DNA of 64,000 bases, taken from positions 11,867-75,866 of the forward strand of contig CBFIGY010000013.1 of assembly GCA_965662235.1 (NCBI GenBank). The letters run 5' to 3'. Every line of letters begins with the position of its first letter. The first letter of the stretch is position 1. The DNA comes from an uncultured bacterium. GTDB lineage: Bacteria; SAR324; NAC60-12. Both the position numbers and the translations under genes were made by a program. The notes beneath the pieces were generated by a model. It ran no database searches. It was not told the DNA's origin and saw only the letters and a program-made list of their open reading frames with translations. This document shows, one piece after another, positions 7,320 through 47,458 of this stretch.

Positions 7320-7858
7320 CTTGCCATGCGAGGAGGGGCCGGATACCGCTGCAGGATCCGCCCCTTCAGCGTCTCAATCAGCTGCTCTGCAGACGCCGAC
7401 ACAGGCGTAGAAAGCTCCCGTCCATAGTCCACCGACTCCGCTTCCACCAAGAATACCTTCACGTGCTGCGGGAAGCGGTCTGGGTAAAGCTGCCTTCCGG
7501 TCACCAGGGCCTGATCCCAGCGGAAGTCGTGCGAGTTGAAGGCCACCTCCGAGTGAGTCGGCAGCTCTTCCTCCGTCAGTTCCAGCAGCGTTCCGGCCGG
7601 AGCGTCACTGGTGCACGCGTCAATCACCCACAACTCCTCACACCCCTGGGCCAGGAACATCAGGTCGATTCCGGACGTCCCGGCCTCAACCAGATGCACC
7701 TCCGGAGGGAGGGTGGGCAGCTGACGCTGGAGGGCTTCAATTACATGCACCCCCACCCCGTCGTCCTGACGGTTCAGGTTGCCGCAACCGATCACTCCCA
7801 ACGGAGTTGACCCCGAACGGAGGTCGCGTTTTTTCTTCTTGCTGGAACCTCTTTGCAT
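7316..7858 (-). CDS. hydrogenase maturation endopeptidase (HyaD/HybD family); start uncertain because of a basic N-terminal extension
   Basis: LGVIGCGNLNRQDDGVGVHVIEALQ...VHLVEAGTSGIDLMF...LWVIDAC is typical of the family. No hydrogenase structural genes are in the window. Confidence 0.7.
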   Translation of the reverse strand: MQRGSSKKKKRDLRSGSTPLGVIGCGNLNRQDDGVGVHVIEALQRQLPTLPPEVHLVEAGTSGIDLMFLAQGCEELWVIDACTSDAPAGTLLELTEEELPTHSEVAFNSHDFRWDQALVTGRQLYPDRFPQHVKVFLVEAESVDYGRELSTPVSASAEQLIETLKGRILQRYPAPPRMAS

Positions 7859-7924
7859 TGTGCGCTAAGCTCATTGAATTGATTCAAAATGTGACACTCT
7901 TCAAGCAGTCCTCCCCTATCCAGT

Positions 7925-25594: not shown

Positions 25595-27372
25595 CGTCTA
25601 ATAGGTCTTCCTCGCTCGCCTCCGCTGGTGCGGTCTCCGCTTGCTTCTCAGCCGGGTCCCAGCCCTCAAACAGTCGACTCAGGACCTCCTGAAAGGGTTC
25701 CTGCAGACAGGACTGATGAATGGTCCGTTCCACATCTCGGGAGTAGAGGTGTTCCAGCTCTGAGAGATCCAGGGGGGAGGGAACCTCGGTTTCCGGTTCC
25801 AGCGTGTGTTCCAGCTCGGCGTGGAGGAGTTCAATGAGTTGATACGTGAGGCGGACGCGGAGTTCCACCTGTTCCCCAAAGGAAAGATTTTCCAACAAGG
25901 TGAGGATTCCGCCAGCTAATTTCCACGTCTCCCGTGACACGGCCCCCGTCCGGGCCAGCATGGCCACGCTTGCCTCCCGGAATCCCTGCAGGCGCTCATT
26001 GAGCGATGCCCGGGTCCGGCCTACGGATTCGAGCTGCTGATCCAGAGACTGCTCCAGCGCTTCCTGGAAGCCAGCAATCAGCTCCAGCCCCTCCTGCAGG
26101 GTGGAGACTTCTCGAGACAGCAGGGTCTGTGCTTCCTCAGAACGGTGGATGACCTCATGGCTCAGTTTTTCCAGGTGCAGCGACTGCTCTCCGGCATCAT
26201 TCGGAAGCAGCATCGCGTTCACGGACATGCGGCGCAGGTCGTTTCCAATGTCCTCAATGGACTCCAGGTGCTCCCGGGTCAGGCGCAGCCGTGCATTGAC
26301 CTCCTCCATGGCCTCCAGCACACGCCGCGTCACCCCTTCACTGCGTCGGAGCGTCTGCAGCAGCGCCTGCAGGGCCAGGTCAAGCTGCCGGACGCCGGCA
26401 CTCAACGGACCTTCCAGCCCCAGGATTTCTCCGACTCGGGAAACCTGATTCTGCGCCCGCTCCGAAATGTCCCGGAACCGGGCGTCCACCTGCTGCTCCA
26501 CCTCATCGGTCTTGTGGAGCACATACGCCAACTGCCCCAGCTGAATTTCCAGACACTGCTTGGCCCAACGCCGGGACGCCACCGTCCCGTCTTCCAGGCG
26601 CGTTCCTGCGAGGAGGAGGGCCTGAGAAACGTGCTCCATCTGCTGACGGGTGATGTCATGGAACTGCACCGCCATCACCACCTGGTTGAGGTAGGGGACG
26701 ATTTCCTCTGAGTCCTTGCGGATCCAGCTGCAGGAGCTGACCACCTTGCGCATCAGGCTGCGCATCTCCCGGACCCCATCTTCCACCTGACGCTGCAGGG
26801 CCTCTGCTTCCAGAGGCATCAGTTCGCTCAGGCGGACCTGCCGCATGACGGTAAAGAACTCCTCCTGTGCCTGTTCCGCGCTCCAGGTCATGGAAAGCCG
26901 GGTGTCGGCCATGTGTCCGGCGAGGGTGGTGATGCCCTCAGACAGCTGAACAAAAGCCCGGGGGTGCGAATGCTGCTGCCCCTGCAGGTTCATGAGGACC
27001 CCGATGATGCGGACCGCGTGGGCAAGGCGCATGAGGAAGCCCCCCACCTGTTCCAGAGACTGGGTCCGTCCGGTCAGGTCGTGCAGACTGGGCAGGGTCC
27101 CGGTGAGCAGGGTGGTGCTGTCTCCCACCTCCCGTCCTCCTTCCCGGAACAGCGTCTCTACCTCATCAAGCTGCCACCCCTCGCCCGACTGAATCCGGGC
27201 TTCGACGTCGCCCACTTCAGCCGAGTTGTTCTTGAACTGGGTGGAGACGCCGTAGATCTGGTCTCCGAGCAAGAGGAAGTCCTGCTCCGTTTCCGCAGAG
27301 ATGCTCATCAGTCCCTCTGCAGCCTGGCGCAGGAGGGCGGTTCCGGAGGTCAAGTCAAAGGAGGCGGTCATG
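25578..27372 (-). CDS. coiled-coil protein, possibly a divergent soluble chemoreceptor-like protein (start placed at MTASFDL)
   Basis: Q/L/E-rich heptad-rich sequence. Segment RRMSVNAMLLPNDAGEQSLHLEKLSHEV weakly recalls the MCP tip [21 protein letters not shown]. Acidic C-terminus EEDLLDDVEFF. Confidence 0.4.
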
Positions 27373-27378
27373 GTCTCT

Positions 27379-27999
27379 TCAATCCCACAAATCGACATCC
27401 ACAGGACGCTGCGGACGTTGCTGTTTCTCTCGTTCACGCTGAACCTCCCGGATGAAGCTCCGGTCGCGCTCAACGACTTCAGACACTTCCGTACGCTGGA
27501 CCTTCCGGACGTACACGGAATAGTCCCGCGAGTCAAAGTAAATGACGCGGCCAAACACCCCCTCTAGGTCGGCCGCCACCACCGGAATGCGGTCCTCTTG
27601 AAGGAAGTTCACCACAAAGCGGGCGTTCCGGCCCCCAACGTCCAGCATGGGCGCCGCGTGTTGGTTGATCTGAAGCACCGCCGCGCCGCCAAAGACCTTG
27701 GCCTTGAGGTGCTTGCGCTGGGCGCCCAGTTTCATCATCCGGTTGATGAGCAGTTCCATGGCGTTGATGCCGTATCGTCCAGCATCACTCTTGAGCATGA
27801 GGTCCTGACTGCTGTACGACTGCGTGCTCAGCAGAAAGTGGTTCATGCCCACAATGTGATTGACCGGATCGTACAAACAGGCCGAGACACACGACCCCAG
27901 CAAGGTGATGAGCACCACGTCTTTTTCAGACGCATGATACTCACCCGGCTGTACGCGTATCTTCATGCGACTGTCGAACAGTTTCGGAGCTCTTGACAT
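27379..27999 (-). CDS. cheD: chemoreceptor glutamine deamidase CheD
   Basis: ITLLGSCVSACLYD (CheD catalytic Cys motif) ...VGMNHFLL...KVFGGAAVL. Confidence 0.8.
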   Translation of the reverse strand: MSRAPKLFDSRMKIRVQPGEYHASEKDVVLITLLGSCVSACLYDPVNHIVGMNHFLLSTQSYSSQDLMLKSDAGRYGINAMELLINRMMKLGAQRKHLKAKVFGGAAVLQINQHAAPMLDVGGRNARFVVNFLQEDRIPVVAADLEGVFGRVIYFDSRDYSVYVRKVQRTEVSEVVERDRSFIREVQREREKQQRPQRPVDVDLWD

Positions 28000-29116: not shown

Positions 29117-30583
29117 TCATAAGAGCCACACCCCTTTCGGGAGTTCCATCCGCAGCACCGTGCCGCGTCCAATGCGAGACGAGGCGCTCAGCTGCCCACC
29201 ATGTTCTTCTACAATGCCATAGGCGACTGCCAGTCCCATTCCGGCACTCCGTCCAACCTTGGTGCTGAAAAATGGTTCAAACACCCGTGGCAGGTGTTCT
29301 GACTCAATGCCACAGCCGGTGTCCTCCACCTCCAGCACCACCTGTTCTTCGGTCTCAAAGCTCCGGAGCCTCAGCTTCCGGGTCTCCTGCGCCTGCATCG
29401 CCTCTAGGGCGTTGAGGAGCAGCTGAAACACGGCCAGCTCCAGGGCGGCTGAGTCACAGATCACCTCCGGCTCGGGGTCAACCCACTCCTGCTCAATGGC
29501 AATGGCGTCCTCCTCAAAGCGAGCCCGGAGCAGCTCCAGGGCATGCTTAACGATGCTCTGCAGCCCCACCCGCTCCCGCTCCGTCCGGGGGTTGCGTCGG
29601 GAGAAGGCCTCCATGCTTTCCAGCAAGAACCGGATGTTCTCCAGTGCCGCCTGAACCGACTGCCCCTCGGATTCCTCAAGGCAGGGGGCTTCCTTCAACA
29701 CGTTGTTCAGGACCTGCAGCGAGTCGTCCAGCACCTCAGACAGCGACGACGAAAGGGTCCGCAAGGCGCTCATCAGCGACGAGAGCTGCTCCTGCTTCCG
29801 CTCCTGCAGCTGCTGACGCCTCAGATGGATGAGCCGGACCTCGTTCTTCAGACGGGCCTTCAGCTCTTCCCGGGAGAACGGTTTGGTGAGAAAATCCGAG
29901 GCGCCATTCCGCAGCGCCTCAATCATCGACTCCTGCTCATTGAGCGAGGTCAGGACCAGGATCGGCGCCTCCTGGTAGTGCTCATTTTCGCGGACCTGCT
30001 TGCAGAGTTCCAGGCCATCAACGTGCGGCATGAGGAGGTCCGTGAAGAGGATGTCCACCGGATGATGTCGCAGCAGCTGCAGGGCCTGCCGTCCGTCTTC
30101 GGCTGTCAGAACGCTGGCGCCATTGTGTTCCAGCAGCCGCTGCAGGAGGTTCCGCACCGATGGGGCATCATCCACGACCAGGCACCGGATGCTTTCCAGA
30201 AAGCGTTCCTGCTCCAGCAGCTCCCCGGCATAGGCCGCTAGGCTTCCTTCCAGAAAGGGCTTGAGGAACAGCTCCACCACTCCGGTTTCAAACGCCCGCT
30301 CTCGGATGGAATCCGACTCGGCAGAGGTGATGAGGATGACCGGGATGTGCGCGGTCTCCGGCTGCTGCCGAAGCTGCTGCACAAACGCCAGCCCGTCCAT
30401 GCCTTCAATCTCCAGATCGGTGGTGATCAGGTCCGGCACCCATTCCAGTGCCAGCGCCAGCGCTTCATCGGCAGAAGCCGCCTCCTCGACGGTCACTGCC
30501 TCCAGCGTCTCCAACTCCATCCGGATGAACACCCGGGCCGATGCGCTGTCATCGAGCACCAAAATGCGTCGAGGGGCTGTCAT
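29117..30583 (-). CDS. hybrid histidine kinase with two N-terminal receiver domains (REC-REC-HisKA-HATPase), paralogue of 22808-24301
   Basis: REC1: ILVLDDSASARVF...LITTDLEIEGMDG...LKPF. REC2: CLVVDDAPSVR...ILFTDLLMPHVDG...LTKPF. HATPase: VEDTGCGIESEHLPRVFEPFFSTK...GMGL. Confidence 0.85.
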   Translation of the reverse strand: MTAPRRILVLDDSASARVFIRMELETLEAVTVEEAASADEALALALEWVPDLITTDLEIEGMDGLAFVQQLRQQPETAHIPVILITSAESDSIRERAFETGVVELFLKPFLEGSLAAYAGELLEQERFLESIRCLVVDDAPSVRNLLQRLLEHNGASVLTAEDGRQALQLLRHHPVDILFTDLLMPHVDGLELCKQVRENEHYQEAPILVLTSLNEQESMIEALRNGASDFLTKPFSREELKARLKNEVRLIHLRRQQLQERKQEQLSSLMSALRTLSSSLSEVLDDSLQVLNNVLKEAPCLEESEGQSVQAALENIRFLLESMEAFSRRNPRTERERVGLQSIVKHALELLRARFEEDAIAIEQEWVDPEPEVICDSAALELAVFQLLLNALEAMQAQETRKLRLRSFETEEQVVLEVEDTGCGIESEHLPRVFEPFFSTKVGRSAGMGLAVAYGIVEEHGGQLSASSRIGRGTVLRMELPKGVWLL

Positions 30584-31443: not shown

Positions 31444-33984
31444 TCAGAGGGACTCCTGAGACGGCTGAGAAGGCTCAAACGAGCTCGGTAAGTCATCCAC
31501 CCACGCCTGCAACGCCTCCTGACTGGCCTGTGGGAGCTCAAGAAATCGGTTGACGTTACGGTCCTTGAGCATGTCCAAGGGGACGGTAAACTCGGTGATC
31601 AGACGATCATCGGTGTTGCGTTCCAGGGGGTTCAGCGTCTTGAGGTACCGGACCACTTCATGGTCCCCCATCAGGAACAGCTGAGGTAAGAACGTTTCAG
31701 GCTTCAGGCCAAAACGCTTCAAGGTGGCCGCCACCTGCGGACGGGAGGCACGACGGACCACATCGGCGTACTTGAGTCGGAAGTCGGGAGACTTGGAAGC
31801 AATCATCAGCAGGTCTCCCGGAACCGTCGAGCGCCACAGGGACACCTGGGGAAACACGGAACGGAGCGTGTAGATGAGGATCTTCAGGTTCCGGGGAGAC
31901 ATGTGGTAGGCCGGAAGCCACTGGGCCAGCATGCCGTTGGCCGACAGGCTCTGCTCCACCTGCTCGTACCATTCCAGCGAAAGCAGACTCGACTCTCCCT
32001 TGATCCAGGGATTCGAGGGCTGTGAGATGATCAGGTCAAACGGTTCCTTCTCACTGATGAGGAAGCTCCGGGCATCCCGAGCCACCACCGTGGAGCGGGC
32101 GTCATGAAGAACACCGTGGTTGTAGCGCTCAAAGAAGGAGGCTGCCCGGACCACAGCAGGCGAGATTTCCGCGGTGATCAGGGTTTCTGGATCGTGCAGC
32201 AACGCTGTGCCACTGGTGATGCCACTGCCCAGGCCCACCACAAACACGCGCTCCGGATTGGGGTGCAGGATCATCGGAAGCGAAGCCAACAGGGTCTGGG
32301 TGGGCATGTCGCCACTTCCCCCGGCACTCGCATCCACCTTGCCGTTGATCATCAGGCTCCGTTTGCCCTCGGCACTGTCCATGACCGCCACGGTTGCCAC
32401 TGGGCCCATCTCGTAGTAGACCATCTCAAACTTCCGCATCGCGGCTTCCCACACCAGCGACTGCTTCGCCTGCGACACATCCTCTCGCTCCAGGGCCATC
32501 AGGTTGTAGTTCCGGGAGGAGTCGTAGTACTGGTTGGCATAGAGGTAAACACCACTGCTCATCAACCGAGGCGACCACGGCTGATTCAGCAACAGGCTCA
32601 ACGCCGCCACAAAGGTCGTGGGAATCGCCCACCGGAGCCGAAGCCCCGGGGTCCACTCCGGGTGACTCATGAGGATCGCTAGGCCGATGGCAAAGCTGAT
32701 CACCGCTCCCAGCGTGACGGTGCCCTGCATGCCCATGCCGGGAACCAGGACCACTCCGGCGAGCGCGGCTCCGATCATGGCGCCCATTGTGTTGACGCCG
32801 AACACACGGCCCACGGCCTTGCTCGGAGAACGCGTGTTGGCCCCCAGTGCCGCACAGACCGTGGGGAACATCATTCCCATGGCAATCGTGGGGACCAGCA
32901 TCACCAGTGCGGCCAAAAGGAAACGCAGCACCTGCACGCCTCCCCAGGTGTCCAACAGCTCGCGGTGCAGCGACAGGTACAGGAACGGCAACCGCTCCAT
33001 GAGGATGTTTGCAACGAGCACCGATACGGCCAGCACCAGCTGCAGGAGCACATAGAGGGTCCGGGGCGAAAGACGTTGGTCCAGGTGCCGGTAGGCGTAG
33101 CTCCCAATGGCAATGCCCAGGAGAAACGTTGCCAAAATGGTGGTGAAGGCATACGACGTGGTTCCCAACAGCATGCTCAGGGTCCGGTTCCAGGCAACCT
33201 GGTACCCGAGCGCAACCGCGCCAGAGAGGCCGTAGCTCCAGAAGATGAGCCGAGCATTGAAGGAAAGACGGGGCAGCGGCTCCTCATGCAGCGGCAGGGT
33301 CGAATCGGCTCCCCCCTTGCGCTGGTGCAGCATCCAGAATCCCACCCCAATCAGGAGGTTGAGGGAGGCGGCAATCCAGGTGGTCCCAGAGTGTCCCAAA
33401 AACCGGAGCAGCAGGTACCCGGTCACCAGGGTTCCGGTGAGGGCCCCAAAGGTGTTGGCAGAGTACAGCCGCGCCGTGTTGACCGCCAGCAGACGCTCAG
33501 TCCGGGTCAGGTACCGGCTCATCAGCGGCAGCGTTCCTCCCATCAAGAACGTCGGTGGCGCCAGCAGCAGCACCCCAAAGAAGAAAGGCACCAGGGTCCG
33601 GGACTCGGCCAGGAGCGGAAACTGCTGATACAGCATCGCATGCAGCGCCTGGGCGCCCTCCACCAGAAAGGGGAAGAGGAGGGCGTAACCGCCAATCCCC
33701 CCTTCGAGGAAGGCATACGTTCGAGCCAGCTGAGTTTCCCCCCAGAGGTCCCCCTGCTTCCCAAACCACCAGCCCCCCCAAGCCAGCCCCCCCATGAAGC
33801 CCGTCAGGATCACCGTCACTGCGGTTGTGGACGACCCTAAAAAGTTGGTCAGGGTCCGGATCCAGATCACCTCATACGCGAGGCTGGCGGCCCCGGAACC
33901 AAAGAAGAACAGCGTCAGCCACTGCTCAAGCTTCAGGCCCAAGAGGGTCGCATTGAGGGGGGTGCGGGCGGGGGAGGGTGTCAT
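31444..33984 (-). CDS. fused polytopic membrane domain + spermidine synthase-like (aminopropyltransferase fold) protein
   Basis: About 12 predicted TM helices in the N-terminal 450 aa. C-terminal PABS-like fold: ERVFVVGLGSGITSGTAL...DLIISQPSNPWIKGESSLLSLEWYE. Confidence 0.75.
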   Translation of the reverse strand: MTPSPARTPLNATLLGLKLEQWLTLFFFGSGAASLAYEVIWIRTLTNFLGSSTTAVTVILTGFMGGLAWGGWWFGKQGDLWGETQLARTYAFLEGGIGGYALLFPFLVEGAQALHAMLYQQFPLLAESRTLVPFFFGVLLLAPPTFLMGGTLPLMSRYLTRTERLLAVNTARLYSANTFGALTGTLVTGYLLLRFLGHSGTTWIAASLNLLIGVGFWMLHQRKGGADSTLPLHEEPLPRLSFNARLIFWSYGLSGAVALGYQVAWNRTLSMLLGTTSYAFTTILATFLLGIAIGSYAYRHLDQRLSPRTLYVLLQLVLAVSVLVANILMERLPFLYLSLHRELLDTWGGVQVLRFLLAALVMLVPTIAMGMMFPTVCAALGANTRSPSKAVGRVFGVNTMGAMIGAALAGVVLVPGMGMQGTVTLGAVISFAIGLAILMSHPEWTPGLRLRWAIPTTFVAALSLLLNQPWSPRLMSSGVYLYANQYYDSSRNYNLMALEREDVSQAKQSLVWEAAMRKFEMVYYEMGPVATVAVMDSAEGKRSLMINGKVDASAGGSGDMPTQTLLASLPMILHPNPERVFVVGLGSGITSGTALLHDPETLITAEISPAVVRAASFFERYNHGVLHDARSTVVARDARSFLISEKEPFDLIISQPSNPWIKGESSLLSLEWYEQVEQSLSANGMLAQWLPAYHMSPRNLKILIYTLRSVFPQVSLWRSTVPGDLLMIASKSPDFRLKYADVVRRASRPQVAATLKRFGLKPETFLPQLFLMGDHEVVRYLKTLNPLERNTDDRLITEFTVPLDMLKDRNVNRFLELPQASQEALQAWVDDLPSSFEPSQPSQESL

Positions 33985-34651: not shown

Positions 34652-36784
34652 TCAGAACCGCTCGAAGTCCTCATCTGCAGAGTCGGCTCCGCCCATGTCG
34701 AGGTCCACTCCACCACTCTTCTGCGATCCGCTCTTCTTTGGAGGAGCAATCTGCTTCGGTTTGTCTCCACCCGACTTGGCGCCACCGCCCTGGCTCTTTG
34801 AGGACGGGTGATGCGGAAGGTGCGCAATCTTGGTGTGCGCTCCCTGTCGGTGGAGGCTATGCCGGGAGCTCTCCAACTTGAAGAACAGCATGGCCTGCTG
34901 CAGCTGCTCGGCCTGAGAGCTCATTTCCTCTGTAGTGGAGGCGAGTTCCTCAGAGGCCGCCGCGTTTTGCTGCACCACCTGGTCCAGCTGCTGGATGGCG
35001 GCATTGATCTGCTGGGATCCGGAGTTCTGCTCCCGGGACGCAGCACTGATTTCCTGGACCAGCTCGGCCGTCCGTTGGATATCAGGTACCAGTTGCTCCA
35101 GCATCTTTCCTGCCGTCTGTGCCACCTCAACGCTGCTGCTGGCCAGGGTGTTGATCTCAGCAGCAGCCGTTTGGCTCCGTTCCGCGAGCTTCCGGACCTC
35201 AGAGGCCACCACGGCAAAGCCCTTGCCATGCTCACCAGCCCGGGCAGCTTCAATGGCCGCGTTGAGGGCCAGCAGGTTGGTCTGCCGGGCGATCTCTTCA
35301 ATGATGGAGATCTTGTCAGCAATCTGGTTCATCGCTGTCACCGTGTTGACCACAGCGTCTCCTCCCTCACGGGCGTCATCCGCCGCCTTGCGGGCAATCT
35401 TCTCCGTCTGCACCGCGTTGTCGGTGTTCTGCTGAATGTTGGACCCCATTTCCTCCATGGAGGAGGAAACTTCCTCGACCGATGAAGCCTGTTCCGAAGC
35501 TCCCTGCGAGAGCTCCTGTGCCGTGGAGCTGACCTCCTGGGCTCCTGAAGCAACGTTGTCCGAGGCGTTCCGGACCGTCTCCACAATCTCACGGAGCCGC
35601 TCCGTCATCTGCTCAATGGACGCCAGGATGCCGGAGTTCCGTTTCCCTGCACGGCCCTGGTTGAAGTCCACATCCAGGTCTCCGCCAGCCACCTTGTCCA
35701 CCATGATCCCAATCTCAGCAGGTTCTCCTCCCACCTGTCGGACAATGGACAGAACCACCCAGAGGGCAATCCCCAGCCCCAGGATCAGGCTCACGACAAT
35801 GAGGATGAGCAGGTTGTTCCGGGTGTCTTCATAGAGGGCGTCACTGGAAAGCTTGATGGTCTCCAAGTCATCTTCGTTCTTCTGAACAATGTTGGCCATG
35901 ATGGCAATCGACTTGTCGTTCAGCTCCCGGCCTTGGCCAACTGAGAGGTTGAAGGCCTTGGTGTTTCCGTTCTCCCGGGTGATGGACTGCACCTCCTGAT
36001 TATGACTGAGGTAGTCCTGATAAAGGGGGCGGAATTCCCGGATGAGGGCCCGTCCCTGATTGGAGGAAACCTGCTCCAGCTCGTTGAGCCGCGACTCCAG
36101 TTCCTTCCGGATTTGCTCGGTCGCTTGGGCGTACTGATCCATGTCCTTGTCGGTGGTGGAGAGAATGACGTTCTTCTCCGCCCGTTGCAGCTCGACTAGG
36201 TTCTGGTTGATGCGAGCCCCCAGCTTGATGCGGTTGACGATCACCCGGAGGGTCTCCAGGTCCAGGGCTTCATCGGCCTGCCGGTCATTGAGGTCCACCA
36301 CCTGCGTCATCACCGCTGCCGCCTTGTCAAAGGCAGCGCGGGAGTCATTTTTGGAAAGCTCCTGTGCCCGGACGTTCGAGTTCAGACGTGAGAAGCTTCG
36401 GACCTCCTGATGGACCTTCATGTAGTCGTTGAAGGCGGTACCAAAGGAGTCCAGCTCTCGCTTTCCGGCTTCATCGGCCAGTTCCCGGAGTTCTCCGCGC
36501 CGCGAGTCCATATCCGCTCGGATGCCATCAATTTCCTTGGCATAGACATCCATGTCCTCCTGGGTCTTGGCCAGGATCATGTTCTTCTCCGCCCGGGAGA
36601 TGGCCACAATGCCCTGGTTGATCCGGGCCGCCAGTTTGATCTTGACGGCTGTGTTATCAGCCACAAAGTTCAGCTGATCATTGACCCCGCCGAGCCCATT
36701 GATTCCCATCCAGGAGCTGATCGCCATCAGGACCAGGATGATGATGAATCCACCGAAGAGCTGCGTCTTCATGTTGATTCGCAT
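34652..36784 (-). CDS. methyl-accepting chemotaxis protein (TM sensor, HAMP, signalling domain, long flexible C-terminal tether)
   Basis: [37 protein letters not shown] (canonical MCP tip). HAMP: [14 protein letters not shown]-terminal Lys/Gly/Ser-rich tether of about 50 aa ending DEDFERF. Confidence 0.9.
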
Positions 36785-36827: not shown

Positions 36828-37118
36828 CTAGCCTCTCACCCAATTCAAGTAACCAAAGCCCCCCTCCTCAAGTGCCTCACCCAAGGCACCAGGCAGGGGT
36901 CGCTCCAGTTGCAGGTCAATGCCCTTGCTGCGGGCGAGCAAGTAAGCGGCATGGATCAGCTGCACGCCCGCAACATCGGCCCGCTCCATGGAACCCCATG
37001 CGATCCGGATCTCCTCCGGATTCTGCTGAAAGGCATTCAGGAGTGTTTGTTGATGACGTGCCACTGTGTGGATGGTCAGGTCCCCCTGCAGCGAGACCGT
37101 CTGCGGATTGGAACTCAT
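36828..37118 (-). CDS. STAS-domain protein (anti-sigma-factor-antagonist-like), translationally coupled to the cheA upstream
   Basis: 96-aa SpoIIAA-like pattern [12 protein letters not shown]...[23 protein letters not shown]. Its start overlaps the stop of the cheA at 37115 by 4 nt. Confidence 0.65.
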
Positions 37119-39737: not shown

Positions 39738-40619
39738 TCAGCTGTGCCCCGACGGTGGAGTGAGGGCATGAATGAAAGAAGTGGAATCCAGCAGCACCAC
39801 CGCGGGCCTGTTGTCCTTCCGGTTGAAAAAAAGCCCCGGGGTGGGGTTCTGAAACAAGGCCGCCTGCGCCTCCGGAAGCGGTTCCCCGTCTTCCAACGCC
39901 AGCCACTCCAGTCCCAACGGGTGCCCCAGCACCTCCACCTCCTGACCCTCCTGCTGCAGGAGCAGGAGGCTAGGGGGATCGTGAGGACGGGTGGACGTCA
40001 CCCCAAGCACGTCGTGCAGCACAGGGGCCGAGGCGTCTGCAGGTGCAGCGGCCACACGACGCACACAGGCGGCTTCTAGGGCAACCGGAGGTTCTGTGGC
40101 CAGCCGCAGGGCCAGCACCTCCTGTTGCGGAGGACGGGCGTCTGCGTAGTGCGGCACCGTGCGTTGAATTTCCCGAGACTCGGTCTCAAGGGTGAAGAGT
40201 TGTTCCACATTGAGCAGCGGCACCGATTGTTCCCGGTAGCTCAGCATCCGTTGCACCAGCGCGCCCAGCTGCGGGGGAGGGGAGCCCGCCGGTTGCTCGT
40301 CGGGCTCTCCCACGCCAATGACCTGTTCCACCAGCAGCCCCCAGATGAGCCGGTCCTGCTCCACCACCACGACATTCCCATCCAGGTGCTCCTGGGTCAG
40401 TCCCAGCTTGCGCGAGGCCATCACAACCGGAAGCGCCTCGCCCCGGAGGTTCATGACCCCCAGCAGCTCCGGCGGCGCGTTGGGAACCGGTGTCCACGGA
40501 TTGAGGCGCTGCACCTCCAGCACCGATCGACGGGGCAGGGCCATCAGCTTGCCGGCGATGCGGAAGAAGAGCATCTTGCGGGCAGTGGTCTTCTCTTCCA
40601 GCAGGGTTGCACCCATCAC
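39738..40619 (-). CDS. tandem CheW-like domain protein (second domain divergent)
   Basis: N-terminal domain: MLFFRIAGKLMALPRRSVLEV...LLGVMNLRGEALPVV. C-terminal half repeats the pattern: PVLHDVLGVTSTR...VVLLDSTSF. Confidence 0.65.
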   Translation of the reverse strand: MMGATLLEEKTTARKMLFFRIAGKLMALPRRSVLEVQRLNPWTPVPNAPPELLGVMNLRGEALPVVMASRKLGLTQEHLDGNVVVVEQDRLIWGLLVEQVIGVGEPDEQPAGSPPPQLGALVQRMLSYREQSVPLLNVEQLFTLETESREIQRTVPHYADARPPQQEVLALRLATEPPVALEAACVRRVAAAPADASAPVLHDVLGVTSTRPHDPPSLLLLQQEGQEVEVLGHPLGLEWLALEDGEPLPEAQAALFQNPTPGLFFNRKDNRPAVVLLDSTSFIHALTPPSGHS

Positions 40620-42088
40620 GACACCTGATCGCGAAGTTGTGTGAGCTGCTGCTCCGTGCTCGACAGGCGTTCCGACTCAGAGCGCAGCGACTGCTGGACC
40701 TCGCTGAGGCGGTTGCGGTCCTGCCGGACGGACTCCAGGACGGAGTGGGCATCGGCAAGCACCAGTTCCAGGGTCTCGCGGCAGTAGTTGAGGTTTTCCA
40801 ACTGGTGCTGCTCCCGGTCAAGGAGGTGCTCCAGTTCCAAGCTCTGCCCCCGCAGTTCCAGACGGAAGTGCCGAAGCTGCTCCTGAACCTGACCAGCCAC
40901 CGACGACGCATTGCCCGCCAGCTGACGAGCCTCCTGGATGAGGTTGAGGACCGCCTGACGCTCCTCGTCATCCAACGTGTCGGCGCTCCCGCTATGAGCA
41001 GAAAGCAGTTCCGTCTGCACACACGCCTGTAGCCACTCCTCCAGCTCCCCCTCCATGCGCCACGCGTGCTGAATGAGCGCGCCCAGGTCATGCAACAGGG
41101 TCCGGAGGTGCTCATGAGACGCCTGAGCCGAGGTGGCCATGTGGCTGAGGACCACCAAGCTCTGGGTGAGGCGTTTGATCTCATCATCAAGGTGCTTGCG
41201 GGTCTGTTCTGTGACCGCTGACATCGACTGAAACTCCTGCTCCAGCTCCAGCCCCAGTCCACGGGCCCGGAGGATCAGGTCCCGTTGCCGTCCCAATTCC
41301 TGCTGCAGGAGGTGGGTGGTTTCGGTTTCCAGCTGCTCCGCGTTTTGACTTTCTGGCGCCACCAGTGTGAGCCGTTGTGCTTCCCGGAAACGGTCGAGGG
41401 GACGCAGGGCACAGGCTTCTGCCGCCAGTTCCGTGAAGTGCAGCACCTCCTGCTCCTGCCCCCGGAGCACCCGAGAGGCCCAGGACACTCCGTCTCGGAG
41501 CAACAGGACATCGGTCTTGATGCGGATCAGGCCTTCCGGGTGGTAGAGCGAGGCATGGTCCTCCACCTGACGCAACGTCGTGAAGCGCTCCCGCCAGCCG
41601 TTGAGCTGCGAGGCTCCCTGAGTGACCCACTCGGAAAGGGAAAGCAGCATCTGCTCACTCACAGCAGAGAGGGTGGAGGTGACCTCGGCAATGTGCCCTA
41701 GGTTCCGGACACGCTGCTTGCGAGACGTTTCCAGAGCGGCATTCATGGCCAGAAAGCGAACCTCCCCGTCCAGCCGGGACACGGAGGAGTGAAGGTGCTC
41801 CTGCACCTCCTGCCGGATGTCATCCAACGCCTGGGCGCTTTCTGCCACCTTGGTGTGCAGGGCACTGGAGACCTCCATGGCGGAGTGCAGGGCAGAGAGG
41901 TTCTGGGCCAGCTCCTGAGCAAGCCCCCGGAGGCTGTGGAAGCGGGCACCGGTCTCCAGCAGCTCCTGGCTGCTCTGCCGGACCTGCTCCCGAATCGCTT
42001 GGGAGGAGGCTTTGAACTCACGGAGGTCCGCAGTCAGGGTCGTAAGAGACGTCCCCAGCTGCTCGGCCTGCTGGAGGGACTGAGGCAT
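40616..42088 (-). CDS. coiled-coil protein with a degenerate MCP-signalling-tip-like segment (cytoplasmic chemoreceptor-like?)
   Basis: RFLAMNAALETSRKQRVRNLGHIAEVTS, compared with the MCP tip [27 protein letters not shown]. The rest is heptad/Q-L-E rich with no TM segment. Confidence 0.45.
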   Translation of the reverse strand: MPQSLQQAEQLGTSLTTLTADLREFKASSQAIREQVRQSSQELLETGARFHSLRGLAQELAQNLSALHSAMEVSSALHTKVAESAQALDDIRQEVQEHLHSSVSRLDGEVRFLAMNAALETSRKQRVRNLGHIAEVTSTLSAVSEQMLLSLSEWVTQGASQLNGWRERFTTLRQVEDHASLYHPEGLIRIKTDVLLLRDGVSWASRVLRGQEQEVLHFTELAAEACALRPLDRFREAQRLTLVAPESQNAEQLETETTHLLQQELGRQRDLILRARGLGLELEQEFQSMSAVTEQTRKHLDDEIKRLTQSLVVLSHMATSAQASHEHLRTLLHDLGALIQHAWRMEGELEEWLQACVQTELLSAHSGSADTLDDEERQAVLNLIQEARQLAGNASSVAGQVQEQLRHFRLELRGQSLELEHLLDREQHQLENLNYCRETLELVLADAHSVLESVRQDRNRLSEVQQSLRSESERLSSTEQQLTQLRDQVS

Positions 42089-42441
42089 TACGCTGCTCCA
42101 CTCGATTTGAAGTCCCAGATGGCCTGGTCTTCAGTTTCATGAATCTTGATGAACCGGGAGAACCCGCAAATGTCGAGGATCTCGTGCACCTGCTCTCCCA
42201 CCTGCACCAGCGCAAAGCCACGGCCCTGGGCCTTGAGCTGCTTGTAGCAGTCGGCCACCAGGCCAATGCCACTGGAGGTGATGTAGTTCAGCTCACTGCA
42301 GTCGAGGATCAGGCCGGTGCTCTCGGCATCCTCCAGGAAGGTGTTCAGCTCCTCCCGGGTTTCCCGGGAGGCTTCGAGCCCCAGCTGTTCCCCCAGGGTC
42401 ACAACGTGCACAGAGTCAACGGTTCGGTGTTTCAACGGCAT
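42088..42441 (-). CDS. STAS-domain anti-sigma-factor antagonist-like protein, immediately downstream of the second cheA
   Basis: VHVVTLGEQLGLEASRETREEL...LILDCSELNYITSSGIGLVADCY...ALVQVGEQVHEILDICGF (SpoIIAA-like, with the conserved Ser region). Confidence 0.75.
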   Translation of the reverse strand: MPLKHRTVDSVHVVTLGEQLGLEASRETREELNTFLEDAESTGLILDCSELNYITSSGIGLVADCYKQLKAQGRGFALVQVGEQVHEILDICGFSRFIKIHETEDQAIWDFKSSGAA

Positions 42442-42454: not shown

Positions 42455-44614
42455 TTAAAGTAACAGGCTCAGGTCTTCACCCGTGAGGACCAGTAAGGGG
42501 GCTCCCGTGCCCATAACGATGCACCCTTCAAAGCCTCCCTCTGCCAGGAAGGGGTGCAGGAAGGGACGGATGACGCCCTGTGTGAACTTGAGGATCCGGT
42601 CAGCATGGAAGGCCACCTGCTGCCGACGGGAATCTTCGAGCACCAGGATCACCCCCGTCTGAGGCACCGGAGGCGCCGATCCCAGACCCAATCGGGCCTG
42701 CAGGTCCAGGTAGTGGCAGGTGATGCCCCGGTGCTTGAACACCCCCTGCTCTGGAACCGTGGGGTGCAGCGACAGGTCCACAATCTCCCGGATGACGTCG
42801 TAGCGGATGGCCACGGTTCGGCCGGCCAGTTCCACCACCAGCACCTTGCGGGACTGCAGTCCCAGCCGGAGGGGGCAGAACAGGGTGATCTCAGATCCCT
42901 TGCCCAGCTCAGAGGTAATGCGCACGTCACCACCATGGTGCCGGATGGTGCTGGCCACCACATCCATGCCAACTCCCCGTCCTGACACGTTGGTTACCTT
43001 CTCCGCCATGGAGAATCCAGGCGCCATCAGCAGCTCAAACGCCTCCTCATCGGTGTACTCCGTGTTGGGCTGCGCCAGTCCACGCTCCAGGGCCTTGCTC
43101 AGCACCCGCTGAACGTCAATGCCGTTTCCGTCATCAGAGACCGTGAGGCGCAGCATCTCCGGCTCCAGCCGAGCTGCCACCCGCAGGTTCCCCACTTCTG
43201 ACTTGCCCCGCTGCTTACGGACGTCCGGGGTTTCAATGCCATGGTCAAGGGAGTTCCGGATCAGGTGCACAAACGGGTCACCCAGCAGATCAATGACCGA
43301 GCGGTCCACCTCCAGGTGCTCCCCGCGGAGCTCCAGGGAAACCCGCTTCCCGAGGTCCCGCTCCAGCTGCCGAAGCATCCGGGGCAGGCGGTCAAACAGT
43401 TCACTCAGGCGAGAGGCCCGCAGCTGCTGCAACGACTCCTGCAGGCCACCAAACCGCTGCTGCACCCGCTGCACCGCGCCTCGCATCTCCATCGACATCC
43501 GAGGGTCCAGGCTCTGACGCGTCTCCTGTTCCAAGGCGTCCAGGTGGTTCAACTCCGTCACCACCTCTTCAGCATGGCGGGTGAACTCATTGAGGTCGTC
43601 CATGCTGATGCGCATCATCTCCCGACGCGTGGCCTGTGCCTCGTTGGTGGCCGCAGGAGCGCTCGGTGCTGCCGGGGTCCGAGCCGAGCCAATCCCGAGC
43701 ATCTCCAGAGCAAACTCGCTGGCGTCATGAGACCGGACGTTGCACTTGCGTTCCAGGCCCTCCACCCAAAACTGTTTCCAGAACTGCTCCACCATGTCCG
43801 GAACCAGACGGGCCAAGGCGCTGAGCGAATCCCAGTCCAGCACCGGCTCCGGAGCATCCGGGTAGAGCAGCTTGTCCATCTGGAGCACCAGCGGCTCGTA
43901 GCGTTCAATGCCATCCGGAGGCAGCCCGGCTCCTGCAGCAATCAGCTCCTCCAGTCCAATCAGCACCTCCCGGACTGCGGGGGTGATGTCCTCGCCCTCC
44001 GACGTAAGCACCGACTCCAGCAGCACGCTCCGGACGACCACATCCACCTCCAGGGACTGCTTCTTGGTGAAGTACGTTTCCAGCGTGTCTAGGGCATCCA
44101 GCACCTCCTGAGGCGGAGGCGCCGCGGCGCTGCGGGCCCGTCCCGACTCGGCCTGTTCCACCAGGTTCCGGAGGCGGTCGGCCAGGGGCTCCACCTTCTC
44201 CTCCGAAGGCTCTTCCTTGTTGAGGTTCTGGAGGAAGCGCTCAAAGCGGTCATCCAGCTTCATCTCCTGCTGCCGCATGCGCTCCAGCGCATCCTGAAGC
44301 AGGTCCACGCCCTCCAGCACCCGAGACTGTTCACTGTCCCGTAGCGCCCGGCTCTGGCCCTTGAGCTGCTGCAGGTAGCTTTCAAAGACGTGCGCAAAGG
44401 ACTGCAGGGCCATGAGGTCGAAGAAACCAGCGGTTCCCTTGACGGTGTGGACCCAGCGGAAGATCGCCGCCAGGGTCTCAATCGGCTGTTCCTCGAGTCG
44501 CTCCAGATCCTCCTGAATCAGCTCCAGACCATTGAGGGATTCCTCCACAAAGGCCTGAATGATCTCCGGATCAAAGAAGGATGCGCTGATGTCGGCAGAG
44601 ACGGTTTCGGTCAT
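42455..44614 (-). CDS. cheA: second chemotaxis histidine kinase CheA (start at MTETVSADIS; the upstream part of the ORF is Gly/Pro-rich and non-coding-looking)
   Basis: HPt: FRWVHTVKGTAGFFDL. HATPase: FVHLIRNSLDHGIE...SGRGVGMDVVASTIRHHGG. C-terminal CheW domain. Its start overlaps the stop of the upstream gene by 4 nt. Confidence 0.85.
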   Translation of the reverse strand: MTETVSADISASFFDPEIIQAFVEESLNGLELIQEDLERLEEQPIETLAAIFRWVHTVKGTAGFFDLMALQSFAHVFESYLQQLKGQSRALRDSEQSRVLEGVDLLQDALERMRQQEMKLDDRFERFLQNLNKEEPSEEKVEPLADRLRNLVEQAESGRARSAAAPPPQEVLDALDTLETYFTKKQSLEVDVVVRSVLLESVLTSEGEDITPAVREVLIGLEELIAAGAGLPPDGIERYEPLVLQMDKLLYPDAPEPVLDWDSLSALARLVPDMVEQFWKQFWVEGLERKCNVRSHDASEFALEMLGIGSARTPAAPSAPAATNEAQATRREMMRISMDDLNEFTRHAEEVVTELNHLDALEQETRQSLDPRMSMEMRGAVQRVQQRFGGLQESLQQLRASRLSELFDRLPRMLRQLERDLGKRVSLELRGEHLEVDRSVIDLLGDPFVHLIRNSLDHGIETPDVRKQRGKSEVGNLRVAARLEPEMLRLTVSDDGNGIDVQRVLSKALERGLAQPNTEYTDEEAFELLMAPGFSMAEKVTNVSGRGVGMDVVASTIRHHGGDVRITSELGKGSEITLFCPLRLGLQSRKVLVVELAGRTVAIRYDVIREIVDLSLHPTVPEQGVFKHRGITCHYLDLQARLGLGSAPPVPQTGVILVLEDSRRQQVAFHADRILKFTQGVIRPFLHPFLAEGGFEGCIVMGTGAPLLVLTGEDLSLLL

Positions 44615-45045
44615 GTGCTCCCCTTTTGCACCTCCCGAGCTAGTTGGAGCCAGTAGTTCCGGCGTCGGAGCATGGTCTGGATGGCCTGCCCAAAGGGCTC
44701 CCAGTCCAGTGGAAAGAAAAACAGGTAGTCCGCGCCCTGTCGGTTGCTCCGGGCCACCGCCTCCAGGTCCCGCTCCCGGGCCAGGAAGATGAGGCTGGTG
44801 GAAGGCGCCAGCTGCCGCGCCCGCTTCTTCCACTCGAAGCCATCGAAGCTGCTGCTGTTGATCTCAATGATCAGCAGGTGGCAGGGGTTGCGGCTGAGGA
44901 AGCTCATGAAGCCCTTGGGCGTGTGGTGGTAGATCACCTCAAAGTCCTGCTTGAAGAAGGACTTCAGCTCCTCATTGGTCTCGGTTTCGGCCAGGGTGGC
45001 CACCACAAACGAGGGTTGAGGGGCGTCACTCATGCGTCCTCCCAT
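44611..45045 (-). CDS. pseudo-receiver (degenerate REC-fold) protein
   Basis: Beta-alpha pattern of a receiver (FVVATLAE ... HLLIIEINSS ... SLIFLA ... DYLFFFPLDWEPF), but the acidic pocket, phospho-Asp and Lys are replaced. Confidence 0.5.
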   Translation of the reverse strand: MGGRMSDAPQPSFVVATLAETETNEELKSFFKQDFEVIYHHTPKGFMSFLSRNPCHLLIIEINSSSFDGFEWKKRARQLAPSTSLIFLARERDLEAVARSNRQGADYLFFFPLDWEPFGQAIQTMLRRRNYWLQLAREVQKGST

Positions 45046-45911
45046 CGCTTGGTCATGGTGATGCGGTTGCCGCTGTCGCTCCAGTCCACCGAACTCATGA
45101 TGCCCTTGATGAGCAGCAGCCCCCGCCCATGCGTCTGGGTCGGACTGGCGTTGACGTCACCGCGGTAGGCAGAGGGGTCAAATCCGGGGCCTTCATCTTC
45201 CAAGGAGACCCGAAGCATCTCAGCATCCATGTCCACCTGAATCCGGACCTGCCGGTCCTTGTAGTCAGGATCCTCTGAGCGGGTTCCCACCATGGCTTCA
45301 AACCGTTCCCACGACTGGTCCTTGAGGGAGGACGGGAGTTCCAGGTTCCCGTGGATGATGGAGTTCGTGAGCGACTCCTGCAGGCAGAGGTCAATGAGGT
45401 GCACCGGGACCTGGTTGCTTTCACAGAGGGGACGGTAGAGGGACCGGAGCGTCTGCACCGTGGCGGCAATCAGGTCCGGACGACTGGGCACCAGCAGGCG
45501 CAGCTTGAGGTTGCTGACGGCCAACAGCTCCGTCTGGCGGCTGCTTTCCTGCTGCCGCACCTGCAGGCGCTCCAACGCTGACTGGAGGACATGGAAGGCA
45601 AAGGGCTTGAGGATCAGGTCCACGGCGCCGAGCTTCAGGGCTTCCACAGAAGTCTGCACGTCACCGTGCCCGGTGATGAGCAGCGTCGGAGTGTTCATGC
45701 GCGACCGGACCATGCGTCGCAGCAGCTCCATGCCGTCCATGACGGGCATGCGGATGTCTGAAAGCACGGCGTCAAAAGGAGGCCCAGCTTTCAGCAGCGC
45801 CAGGGCTTCTTCGCCATTGCCTGCAGACGCCACTTCATAATCGGCATCCTCCAGCAACTCTACCAATGAGTCCCGCCATCCGGGCTCATCGTCCACCACC
45901 AGCAGTCTCAT
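45030..45911 (-). CDS. response-regulator receiver fused to an RsbW/RsbT-like GHKL serine kinase (anti-sigma-factor-type HATPase_c_2)
   Basis: REC: MRLLVVDDEPGWR...VLSDIRMPVMDG...LLITGHGD...LILKPF. C-terminus: LCLQESLTNSIIHGNLE...DEGPGFDP...GRGLLLIKGIMSSVDW. Confidence 0.7.
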   Translation of the reverse strand: MRLLVVDDEPGWRDSLVELLEDADYEVASAGNGEEALALLKAGPPFDAVLSDIRMPVMDGMELLRRMVRSRMNTPTLLITGHGDVQTSVEALKLGAVDLILKPFAFHVLQSALERLQVRQQESSRQTELLAVSNLKLRLLVPSRPDLIAATVQTLRSLYRPLCESNQVPVHLIDLCLQESLTNSIIHGNLELPSSLKDQSWERFEAMVGTRSEDPDYKDRQVRIQVDMDAEMLRVSLEDEGPGFDPSAYRGDVNASPTQTHGRGLLLIKGIMSSVDWSDSGNRITMTKRWEDA

Positions 45912-47110
45912 GAGACCCTCTCCTCCTGAGTCGCATGCACCTCAATGCCCATCAAGGTTGCATCGTCATCAAAGCGGTCCTTCCCCGCAAAGTTCAGCAC
46001 CGACTGCATGATCTTTTGAGTCATGTTTGAAAGGTTCTCCTCCCGGAGGCTAGAGAGGGTCTTGCGCAAACGGGGCTCCCCAAACAGCTCGGAGCTGCGG
46101 CTCTTGCCCCAGGCCGGATTGGTCTCCAGCAGCGCATCCGTGTAGATCAGCACCCGGTCCCCGGGACTCAGCTGCACCTTTCCCTCGCCATACTGCACGA
46201 GGTCACTGGGCAGCACCCCCAGCACCACTCCATCGGTGGAGAGGCTGGTGATCTCCTCGGTCCCCTGACGGATCAGGTACGCCGGAGGATGCCCCGCACA
46301 GGTGTAGGTCAATTCCTGCGACTGCTCATCAAAGATCATGTAAAAGAGGCTCGCGAAGCGTCCCGGAGGCATGTAGTCATTGAGGGTGTCGTTGATCCGG
46401 GAAATCGCTTCCTGTGTGGAACTAAGCCCGCCTCCCACCTGCCGGAAGGTGAGGCGCAGCATCATGGCAATCATCGAAGCCGACAAGCCGTGCCCGGTGA
46501 CATCCGCCACCACCATGCCAATGAGGTGATCGTTGAGGCGCAGAACGTCATAGAAGTCTCCACCCACCTCATCCATGGGAATGAACTCCGTCTGAATCTG
46601 CAGGCAGGTAGAAACATCTAGGCTATGTGGAAGCAGAAGCTCCTGAGCCACCCGGGCCTGTTCCAGGTCGTAGCGACTCTGCTTCTGCAACGAAATCAGG
46701 TGCTCATTGAGCATCTCCACCATCTCTAGGTGCCCGTTCATCCGCCGGTTTTCCTGCAGCAGGGAGTGGTGCTCCAAGAAGAGCGCAATCAGTTCATCAG
46801 CAAACTGCTCCGGATGCTCCTGCAGCAGCGAGGTCTGCAACAGCCCCGGCTGACTTCCCTCCGAGAGGGCACCAATCGCAACCGCCAGTGTTTCCGGGAA
46901 CTTTTGCTGAAAACGCTGCAGCTCCTCCGCGTTGGTTCCAATGATCAGCGTCGGAGAAGCCCCTCCTGGACGAAGTGCCCCCAGGGCCTGTTCCACCTCC
47001 TGATAGAGTTCAACCGTGAAGCACCGGCCCAGGTGACGCTCCAGCGTCGCCAGTTCGGGAGTGGAGCCAAGGAGGAGGATCAGGTTGGGTTTGATGGTCT
47101 GTGGACTCAT
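45908..47110 (-). CDS. PP2C-family serine phosphatase (SpoIIE/RsbU-like) with degenerate N-terminal receiver-like domain
   Basis: GGDFYDVLRLNDHLIGMVVADVTGHGLSASMIAMM...CAGHPPAYLIR...GDRVLIYTDALLE. The N-terminal 120 aa are REC-like (LILLLGSTPE...TLIIGTNA) without the conserved Asp. Confidence 0.8.
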   Translation of the reverse strand: MSPQTIKPNLILLLGSTPELATLERHLGRCFTVELYQEVEQALGALRPGGASPTLIIGTNAEELQRFQQKFPETLAVAIGALSEGSQPGLLQTSLLQEHPEQFADELIALFLEHHSLLQENRRMNGHLEMVEMLNEHLISLQKQSRYDLEQARVAQELLLPHSLDVSTCLQIQTEFIPMDEVGGDFYDVLRLNDHLIGMVVADVTGHGLSASMIAMMLRLTFRQVGGGLSSTQEAISRINDTLNDYMPPGRFASLFYMIFDEQSQELTYTCAGHPPAYLIRQGTEEITSLSTDGVVLGVLPSDLVQYGEGKVQLSPGDRVLIYTDALLETNPAWGKSRSSELFGEPRLRKTLSSLREENLSNMTQKIMQSVLNFAGKDRFDDDATLMGIEVHATQEERVS

Positions 47111-47113
47111 GAG

Positions 47114-47458
47114 TCAGCTGGCAATGCGGTCGAGGGCAACGTCAAGGGAGGGGGTGACCTGGAGGAAGCGGTCGATCTGCGTCAACGCGATCGTCTGCCG
47201 GACCACTTCATTGGGGCCACTGAGGAAGAAGGGAACCCGCTGGTTGAGGGAGAGTTTTGCCCCATACAGGATGATGCCAATGCCCGAGGAGTCGAGAAAG
47301 TCCAGGCTTTCCAGGTCCAGGACCAGGCCCGAAGGGGTCTCCTTCAGCAACGACTCCAGCTGCTGCTTGAGCTTGGACACATTGGAACTCTCCAAGGTTC
47401 CGGACAGGGTGACCACCTGGACGGATCCGTTCTTTGTAACATCAATCTGTAGGAACAC
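47114..47458 (-). CDS. STAS-domain anti-sigma-factor antagonist (first gene of the operon, directly upstream of the PP2C phosphatase)
   Basis: VQVVTLSGTLESSNVSKLKQQL...LVLDLESLDFLDSSGIGIILYGAKL (SpoIIAA-like with the phosphorylatable Ser region DSSGIG). Confidence 0.8.
   Translation of the reverse strand: MFLQIDVTKNGSVQVVTLSGTLESSNVSKLKQQLESLLKETPSGLVLDLESLDFLDSSGIGIILYGAKLSLNQRVPFFLSGPNEVVRQTIALTQIDRFLQVTPSLDVALDRIAS

Follow-up and report, generated by a model that had tools for sequence, protein, structure and literature searches.

The window analyzed here is a stretch of 64,000 nucleotides of contig CBFIGY010000013.1, from an uncultured bacterium of the SAR324 lineage, and it carries a chemosensory gene cluster within which an open reading frame (ORF) at 40616–42088 on the minus strand encodes a 490-residue protein that we refer to as cc. 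Several properties of this gene are clear. It is real and constrained, its product is soluble, it lies in the position taken elsewhere by dosM (the gene for a soluble receptor with two methyl-accepting chemotaxis protein [MCP] signaling domains), and its product has weak, decoy-validated similarity to both DosM domains. With middling confidence, we read cc as a strongly diverged, lineage-specific DosM-type descendant, a two-tipped scaffold for the CheA' and CheW-CheW proteins encoded beside it.

The local order on the minus strand is CheA', STAS, cc and tandem CheW, as described by the original prediction, made from the DNA letters and their translations, which placed the gene between tandem-CheW and STAS genes and downstream of what it called CheA-2. 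A single base belongs to both the stop codon of the STAS gene and the start codon of cc (TAATG), and the same holds for the stop codon of cc and the start codon of CheW-CheW (TGATG); because of these one-base overlaps at both junctions we conclude that the three genes are translationally coupled. No canonical MCP gene adjoins CheA' and CheW-CheW, and the sole MCP of the window belongs to a second CheA sub-cluster. The four adjacent genes are as follows.

39738–40616, minus strand: tandem CheW (CheW-CheW), 292 residues in two domains (Pfam CheW, 9.5e-27, two stretches).
40616–42088, minus strand: cc, the whole ORF, ATG start, 490 residues, a soluble all-helical orphan.
42088–42441, minus strand: STAS protein of the anti-sigma-antagonist type, 117 residues, with a TSSG motif (Pfam STAS, 2.4e-19; TIGR00377, 6e-20).
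42455–44614, minus strand: CheA' (Hpt, HATPase_c and P5/CheW domains), matching an ortholog gene call of 718 residues, with the HxxKG motif present.

There is no transmembrane segment in cc, the highest 19-residue Kyte-Doolittle mean being 0.97, compared to 2.99 for the transmembrane helix of the neighboring MCP. The protein is rich in leucine (16.5%), glutamate (11.2%), glutamine (10.2%) and alanine (9.2%), as well as in serine and arginine, and a heptad repeat stands out clearly at about residues 1–100 and 255–490. Both the hydropathy and the composition agree with what had been predicted, namely a protein with no transmembrane segments and a Q/L/E-rich heptad pattern. The parts of cc referred to below are listed here from the N-terminus to the C-terminus.

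41720–42016, minus strand: residues 25–123, which the DosM hidden Markov model (HMM) aligns with DosM signaling domain 1, over its N-arm and the N-helix of its tip.
41675–41758, minus strand: residues 111–138, RFLAMNAALETSRKQRVRNLGHIAEVTS, the first tip-like segment, from the motif and the profile alignment.
41381–41551, minus strand: residues 180–236, the best-conserved block in the ortholog alignment.
41345–41359, minus strand: residues 244–248 (VAPES), a midpoint interruption of the helices in the AlphaFold2 (AF2) secondary structure.
40682–41248, minus strand: residues 281–469, matched by the DosM HMM to both arms of DosM signaling domain 2.
40916–41020, minus strand: residues 357–391, VQTELLSAHSGSADTLDDEERQAVLNLIQEARQLA, the second tip-like site, from the profile alignment and the AF2 model.

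Conservation of the cc gene

The sole other known cc sequence is an ortholog with 88% identity and identical synteny, in a metagenome-assembled genome (MAG) labeled 'Deltaproteobacteria bacterium'. A word-indexed search of 5.8 billion proteins returned cc and this one ortholog and nothing else, an exhaustive HMMER search of 1.84 billion representatives returned cc itself alone, and a genome scan with the cc alignment matched the ortholog MAG alone. Comparison of the two orthologs gives a ratio of nonsynonymous to synonymous substitution rates (dN/dS) of 0.080 at dS = 0.89, and the same pair of genomes gives ratios of 0.064 for CheA, 0.070 for the MCP, and 0.209 for the tandem CheW. The 490-codon frame is intact in both genomes, and the translational coupling is likewise kept. 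The ratio of 0.080 shows that cc is coding and under strong purifying selection, and since it is close to those of CheA and the MCP and below that of the tandem CheW, cc is neither fast-drifting filler nor a relic.

The substitutions between the two orthologs are not evenly spread, and cluster at the N-terminus, at the midpoint (residues 237–259) and at the C-terminus, while the first tip-like segment is invariant. The substitution rate is 24% for positions at least 100 residues from both putative tips, versus 4–12.5% elsewhere, and the tip placement that best explains the distribution is residue 127–141. In a two-tipped rod these substitution-rich parts would be the center, and the same pattern would also fit any two-domain protein. 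The block at residues 180–236 has a single substitution in 57 positions and includes P184 and P230; no HMM alignment covers it and no counterpart was detected in DosM or MCPs. The block may serve for an interaction specific to this lineage, the STAS protein being one candidate partner.

Similarity to DosM-type receptors and predicted fold

The nearest non-orthologous relative of CheW-CheW is a triple-CheW protein (P0005, in the locus that we call L003), and upstream of its gene lies that of a 640-residue soluble protein with two MCPsignal domains (Pfam, 8e-52), a DosM-type receptor. A metagenome scan seeded with CheW-CheW gave 80 loci, about 15 of which have a multi-domain CheW; in 11 of these a gene for a double-domain MCP (646–676 residues) is directly upstream on the same strand. 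The cc gene occupies this dosM position, in that a multi-domain CheW gene follows it immediately. A phmmer comparison of cc with the 1,774 ORFs of the 80 loci gave nothing below E = 0.1. The combination of DosM with CheW3 is the signature of F9 systems, and DosM (VC1403) is an extended rod that connects two CheA/CheW baseplates and has a signaling tip at either end; sensor domains are absent from 98% of its homologs (PMC7534058, PMC9321776). Like DosM, cc is soluble and sensor-less, is probably built of two tandem halves, and is encoded directly upstream of a concatenated-CheW gene.

Profile comparisons extend this likeness to the sequence of cc. A first HMMER profile, built from 24 alphaproteobacterial DosM homologs, scores cc at 6.4 bits with weak colinear matches, and this score is reached by 2–15 of 4,000 decoys. 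A broader profile built from 34 DosM-type receptors (the 24 together with 10 from metagenomes, 32–50% identity) scores it at 24.5 bits (nominal E of 5e-10 for one target, with a bias term of 17.3), and an increase from 6.4 to 24.5 bits with a more diverse profile is the behavior expected of true remote homology. Two pieces contribute: the first (12.9 bits) aligns profile positions 98–195 with cc residues 25–123 with one insertion and ends on LAMNAALETSR, and the second (16.8 bits) aligns positions 404–592 with residues 281–469, spanning both arms with one insertion and one deletion. The 12,000 decoys, which comprised full shuffles as well as 7- and 14-residue block shuffles that keep the heptad phase, all stay below 24.5 bits (the best scores 15.3), the reversed sequences score -6.7 and -9.7, and the other helical proteins of the cluster score 1–2 bits. 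In a ranking of 2,136 natural ORFs, cc is 36th, right behind 35 true MCPs, with the next non-MCP at 12.9 bits, and its ortholog scores 27.6 bits. The two matches depend on the tip-like sites, such that masking residues 106–140 removes the first piece, masking residues 352–395 removes the second, and masking both leaves -1.3 bits. Scored separately, the N-terminal half receives 14.2 bits and the C-terminal half 19.6 bits.

At the first of these sites, FLAMNAALETSR is identical to the 12-residue N-helix of the MCP tip at 7 of 12 positions; since 1.4% of composition-matched shuffles equal this, the motif taken by itself exceeds chance only weakly. The N-helix motif L.A.NAA.E..R is retained at residues 113–123 (with N116, E120 and R123 present), and a generic single-domain MCP profile aligns to residues 6–123 with 11.1 bits, also ending on LAMNAALETSR. 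The predicted alignment of this segment to the MCP tip is partly supported, by the N-helix motif and the profile alignments that end there; the turn is lost, and Pfam MCPsignal (PF00015) misses the tip. A second and stronger site at residues 357–391 was overlooked when cc was described as having one degenerate MCP tip. Here, BLASTP (composition-corrected, E of 0.48) and hhalign (probability 0.7%) both relate cc residues of about 301–460 to the second DosM domain, and both pair VQTELLSAHSGS with the DosM sequence VQTNMLAVSGS. The site as a whole, VQTELLSAHSGS...E.R.LA, is aligned to a variant form of the second DosM tip (VQTNML..., or QT.xL..SGS), of which it retains only QT.LL and E.R.LA. Because of this second site we regard cc as DosM-like, with two tips, rather than as a single degenerate MCP. 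The generic MCP profile finds nothing in the C-terminal half, which points to a specific likeness of that half to the DosM second-domain variant.

Structural models of the cc monomer were generated with AF2 from the two-sequence alignment. Helices are predicted at residues 2–127, 134–174, 184–226, 229–243, 249–364 and 374–489, with the stretch 134–243 kinked, and the breaks fall at about one quarter (128–133, the first tip), one half (244–248) and three quarters (365–373, the second tip) of the length, and the full-length model suggests, as in DosM, long helices that fold back at the one-quarter and three-quarter points. We take the midpoint break, VAPES, as a putative junction joining the two halves in these models. 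The C-terminal hairpin consists of two 116-residue helices, with a predicted local distance difference test (pLDDT) score of 65–70 and its break exactly midway, and the N-terminal break is seen only in the full-length model, with pLDDT below 50. The arms are about 120 residues long, or roughly 17 heptads, and the C-arm of the window's own MCP is 119 residues. In a Foldseek comparison, a portion of the model could be superposed on TM14, a soluble chemoreceptor (3g67_B), with a TM-score of 0.70 and a root-mean-square deviation of 4.0 Å over 219 columns. However, Foldseek gives no match to the PDB at E<=0.001, and its top matches are a mixture of MCPs, ClyA/MakA-type toxins and SMC coiled coils; because the toxins and SMC proteins score similarly, this comparison reveals hairpin geometry and not homology. 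A Chou-Fasman scan for helix breaks in cc gave no discrimination.

Counter-evidence and competing explanations

A number of observations weigh against a DosM-type origin. First, the standard tests for an MCP signaling domain fail. Full-length cc has no match to PF00015 at E<=1 (the gathering threshold is 34.6 bits), and the fragment 1–186 scores 13.8 bits out of register, with cc residues 3–91 aligned to model positions 83–171, on the C-arm of the model and away from the tip, amid many coiled-coil noise matches; the fragment 246–490 gives nothing at E<=10. Single-sequence (phmmer) and two-sequence profile searches of the PDB also give nothing at E<=10, hhalign probabilities are just 0.7–3.2%, the highest being the one obtained with the broader DosM alignment, and NCBIfam yields SMC-type and other generic coiled-coil noise only. 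The profile comparison with PF00015 that the original prediction had proposed as a check thus returned no significant match, an outcome that the prediction had itself named as refuting it. Secondly, the Gly-rich U-turn (AGExGRGF), including the GRGF motif, is missing at both tips, the turn at the first reading RK-QRVRNLGH in place of AGExGRGFAVVA, and the core is Leu-rich (16.5% L and 9.2% A), unlike the Ala-rich MCP bundle. Thirdly, the full-length model has a mean pLDDT of 57, and the N-terminal half (1–248) modeled alone is a single helix at 2–182 in which the motif makes no turn, such that the N-terminal hairpin is tentative. Lastly, we built the DosM profile ourselves and judge its significance by decoys, the full score with the generic MCP profile is non-significant (2.5–5% of decoys reach it) with the C-terminal half blank, a test for duplication between the N- and C-terminal halves is not significant (p = 0.17), and only two cc sequences exist. 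A specific F9 affinity of CheA' was considered and rejected, which also counts against the proposed origin, since the F9 CheA of L003 matches CheA' at 148 bits versus 253 bits for CheA2.

There are also direct differences from DosM. MCPsignal is undetectable in either half of cc, whereas the DosM-like protein of L003 is readily recognized in both of its domains, and the Gly-rich turns and Ala-rich core of DosM have no equivalent. The cc arms have about 17 heptads compared to about 21 (about 120 residues compared to about 145–150 in the L003 protein), the protein is 490 residues long compared to about 640–675, and its partner has two CheW domains whereas the F9 partner has three. The cluster content is not that of a typical F9 cluster either, with a STAS gene between those of CheA' and cc, a partner-switching module (STAS, PP2C and a REC-RsbW kinase) upstream, and a second CheA/MCP sub-cluster downstream. 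Compared to canonical MCPs (PF00015; the 710-residue 4HB-MCP at 34652–36784; TM14 of T. maritima, 3g67), cc shares L-A-x-N-A-A-x-E-x-x-R at residues 113–123, an arm length of about 120 residues versus 119, and a modeled hairpin that superposes on TM14; it differs in falling below every curated threshold, in having two predicted hairpins and no HAMP, transmembrane or sensor domain, and in having no obvious methylation-site pairs, although no consensus scan was made for these.

Two competing explanations deserve consideration. In the first, only the C-terminal half (about 249–489) derives from an MCP, the N-terminal half is a different helical input or adaptor module in which LAMNAALETSR is coincidental, and cc is a degenerate single-domain soluble receptor rather than a scaffold with two tips. 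The BLASTP and hhalign top matches all lie within 301–460, the C-terminal half outscores the N-terminal half (19.6 versus 14.2 bits), it is the only place where a clean symmetric AF2 hairpin (pLDDT of 65–70) is seen, with no turn at the motif in the N-half model, and residues 134–245 contain prolines and lack any DosM-like alignment; the identity count of the motif, taken alone, has a p of about 0.014. However, the N-terminal half receives 12–14 bits with the DosM and generic MCP profiles, both alignments end on the same motif, and its match is removed when the LAMNAALETSR region is masked. Moreover, this motif at one quarter of the length mirrors the second tip at three quarters, and the C-terminal half fits the DosM-specific second-domain variant (AVSGS) and not generic MCPs, which argues for a two-domain ancestor. 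We consider a purely C-terminal MCP origin unlikely.

The second is that cc has no relation to MCPs and is a coiled-coil adaptor particular to its lineage, perhaps tethering or partnering STAS or CheW-CheW, with tip-like motifs that arose by chance or convergence in a helical sequence rich in L, A, E, Q and R. Pfam, NCBIfam and the PDB do not recognize cc as an MCP, ATG17_like, DUF1664, BLOC1_2 and SMC give equal or better weak matches, and the non-significant hhalign results and Leu-rich core are as such an adaptor would have them; the tip-like string without profile support in the protein encoded at 25578–27554 (see below) illustrates how easily such strings are seen. Nonetheless, neither any of the 12,000 phase-preserving decoys nor any natural ORF that is not an MCP comes near the score of cc with the DosM profile, the two matches are colinear with both DosM domains and tip-dependent, and the score grows with profile diversity, all in a protein whose gene is in the dosM position. 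We consider an adaptor of unrelated origin equally unlikely. That cc is a non-functional relic, the still-translated product of a decaying dosM pseudogene, would account for the loss of canonical tip residues and Gly-rich turns, but is highly improbable given a dN/dS of 0.08 at a dS of 0.89, constraint like that of CheA and the MCP and tighter than that of CheW-CheW (0.209), and the 490-residue frame and translational coupling conserved in both genomes.

Among these explanations the DosM-type descendant accounts best for what is seen. What was proposed from the sequence alone, a soluble protein that as a divergent receptor or scaffold would organize a cytoplasmic array, is upheld to the extent that it is the best explanation and fits the dosM gene position, and falls short in that the Pfam and HH tests are not significant.

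Possible role and neighboring genes

As a DosM-type descendant, cc may form dimers shaped as an extended rod, both ends of which would resemble a receptor tip at their surface. The candidate determinants surviving at the N-terminal tip are L113-A-M-N116-A-A-L-E120-x-x-R123, and those at the second tip are Q358-T-x-L-L...G367 together with E386-x-R388-x-L-A. Through them cc would bind the P5 domain of CheA' and the CheW-CheW adaptor, which is co-translated with cc, and so hold together a kinase assembly free of the membrane. The input would not be a ligand bound by cc; likelier sources are the STAS protein encoded immediately upstream, with its phosphorylation switch, and the STAS, PP2C and REC-RsbW-type kinase module encoded farther upstream. 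A more speculative extension, which we regard as rather improbable, is that CheA', STAS, cc and CheW-CheW form a receptor-less cytoplasmic array in which STAS phosphorylation, set by the PP2C phosphatase and the REC-RsbW kinase, replaces receptor signaling as the CheA' switch; the DosM-derived rod would then have shed both its ligand-receptor partners and its canonical tips, giving a hybrid of chemosensory and partner-switching systems.

No proteins other than DosM-type scaffolds are known to bridge two chemosensory baseplates, and these scaffolds are catalogued by their two recognizable MCP domains. If cc is one of them, such scaffolds can erode past the reach of Pfam and yet stay strongly selected, and they would be undercounted wherever cytoplasmic arrays or 'receptor-less' CheA/CheW modules are surveyed. 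The dispensable and the retained tip residues would also be revealed, with L-A-x-N-A-A-x-E-x-x-R, QT.LL and E.R.LA as a natural minimal set for CheW and P5 docking, and the coupling of the cc and STAS genes would offer a concrete system for the wiring of partner-switching with chemosensory signaling. The evidence base for this is a home-made profile and synteny, with two sequences from an uncultured lineage. Rhodobacter sphaeroides has soluble receptors of a cytoplasmic array (TlpT and TlpC), which work beside a membrane array together with a second CheA and with CheW proteins of their own; unlike cc, these are recognizable single-domain MCPs.

In transcription order, the cluster starts with genes for a REC protein, a sensor histidine kinase, STAS, PP2C (SpoIIE), a REC-HATPase_c_2 (RsbW-type) kinase and a weak REC protein, continues with CheA' (Hpt, HATPase and P5), STAS (117 residues), cc, CheW-CheW, CheY and CheA, and ends with STAS_2 (96 residues), the 4HB transmembrane MCP, CheW, an MFS/spermine-synthase-like protein, CheR, a REC-REC-kinase, CheB and CheD. 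CheR, CheB and CheD are thus present in the cluster, next to the canonical MCP. The listed 792-residue, GTG-start ORF of CheA' (42455–44833, minus strand) is over-extended, and translation probably starts at the ATG at 44614, a codon overlapping (ATGA) with the stop codon of a degenerate REC-like protein of 140–144 residues (44611–45045, minus strand; Pfam Response_reg, E of 4e-4, sub-threshold). Upstream of CheA' there is a full partner-switching set (45030–47458, minus strand) encoding a STAS protein (FLDSSGIG), a PP2C/SpoIIE phosphatase and the REC-HATPase_c_2 (RsbW-type) kinase, and the STAS protein encoded between CheA' and cc (42088–42441, minus strand) is a second phosphorylatable one (YITSSGIG). 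This arrangement suggests that CheA' phosphotransfer sets STAS phosphorylation, or vice versa. The occurrence of STAS genes within chemosensory clusters has been noted earlier, with no experimental follow-up (PMC9239204).

Directly after the second CheA gene is that of a 96-residue STAS_2-type protein (36828–37118, minus strand) with no phosphorylatable Ser motif, and an 83-residue protein is encoded after CheA in the F9 cluster of L003 (15222–15473). A small protein encoded in this place may resemble CheS of Sinorhizobium. With regard to the tandem CheW, we considered a specific F9 affinity and rejected it, since single-domain CheW matches the F9 CheW3 equally or better. Its best relatives, in loci L006 and L015, were likewise considered as cc-type loci and rejected, as they are orphan CheW3 genes with no cc-like gene beside them. 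These orphan triple-CheW genes (6941–8446 in both L006 and L015, with others in L010 and L011) are the top metagenomic relatives of CheW-CheW by E-value; they have no chemosensory neighbors and adjoin genes for an NlpC/P60-SH3b protein, an aminotransferase and a 5'-nucleotidase.

Directly downstream of CheD is a helix-rich ORF of about 600–658 residues (25578–27554, minus strand), whose product has the sequence VQFHDITRQQ, a CheZ-like DxxxQ motif (Pfam CheZ, E of about 0.005). It also contains IEDIGNDLRRMSVNAMLLPNDAGEQSLHLEKLSHEV, which by eye matches the MCP tip with the N...AGE spacing retained, and it has no MCPsignal match and scores about 1–3 bits with the MCP and DosM profiles. This protein may be another chemotaxis component in an eroded state, or may simply be a caution about tip motifs identified by eye. 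Between the CheW and CheR genes, an 846-residue protein (31444–33984, minus strand) combines an MFS-like membrane region with a spermine/spermidine-synthase-like domain; it is kept in the ortholog locus and is unusual content for a che cluster. The REC-REC-kinase genes are a near-duplicate pair (29117–30583 and 22808–24301). Finally, two class III nucleotidyl cyclase-PilZ fusions flank the cluster (24356–25594, minus strand, and 16214–17938, plus strand), one of which adds REC and TPR domains, and their presence hints at cyclic nucleotide (cNMP) or cyclic di-GMP signaling as an output of the cluster.

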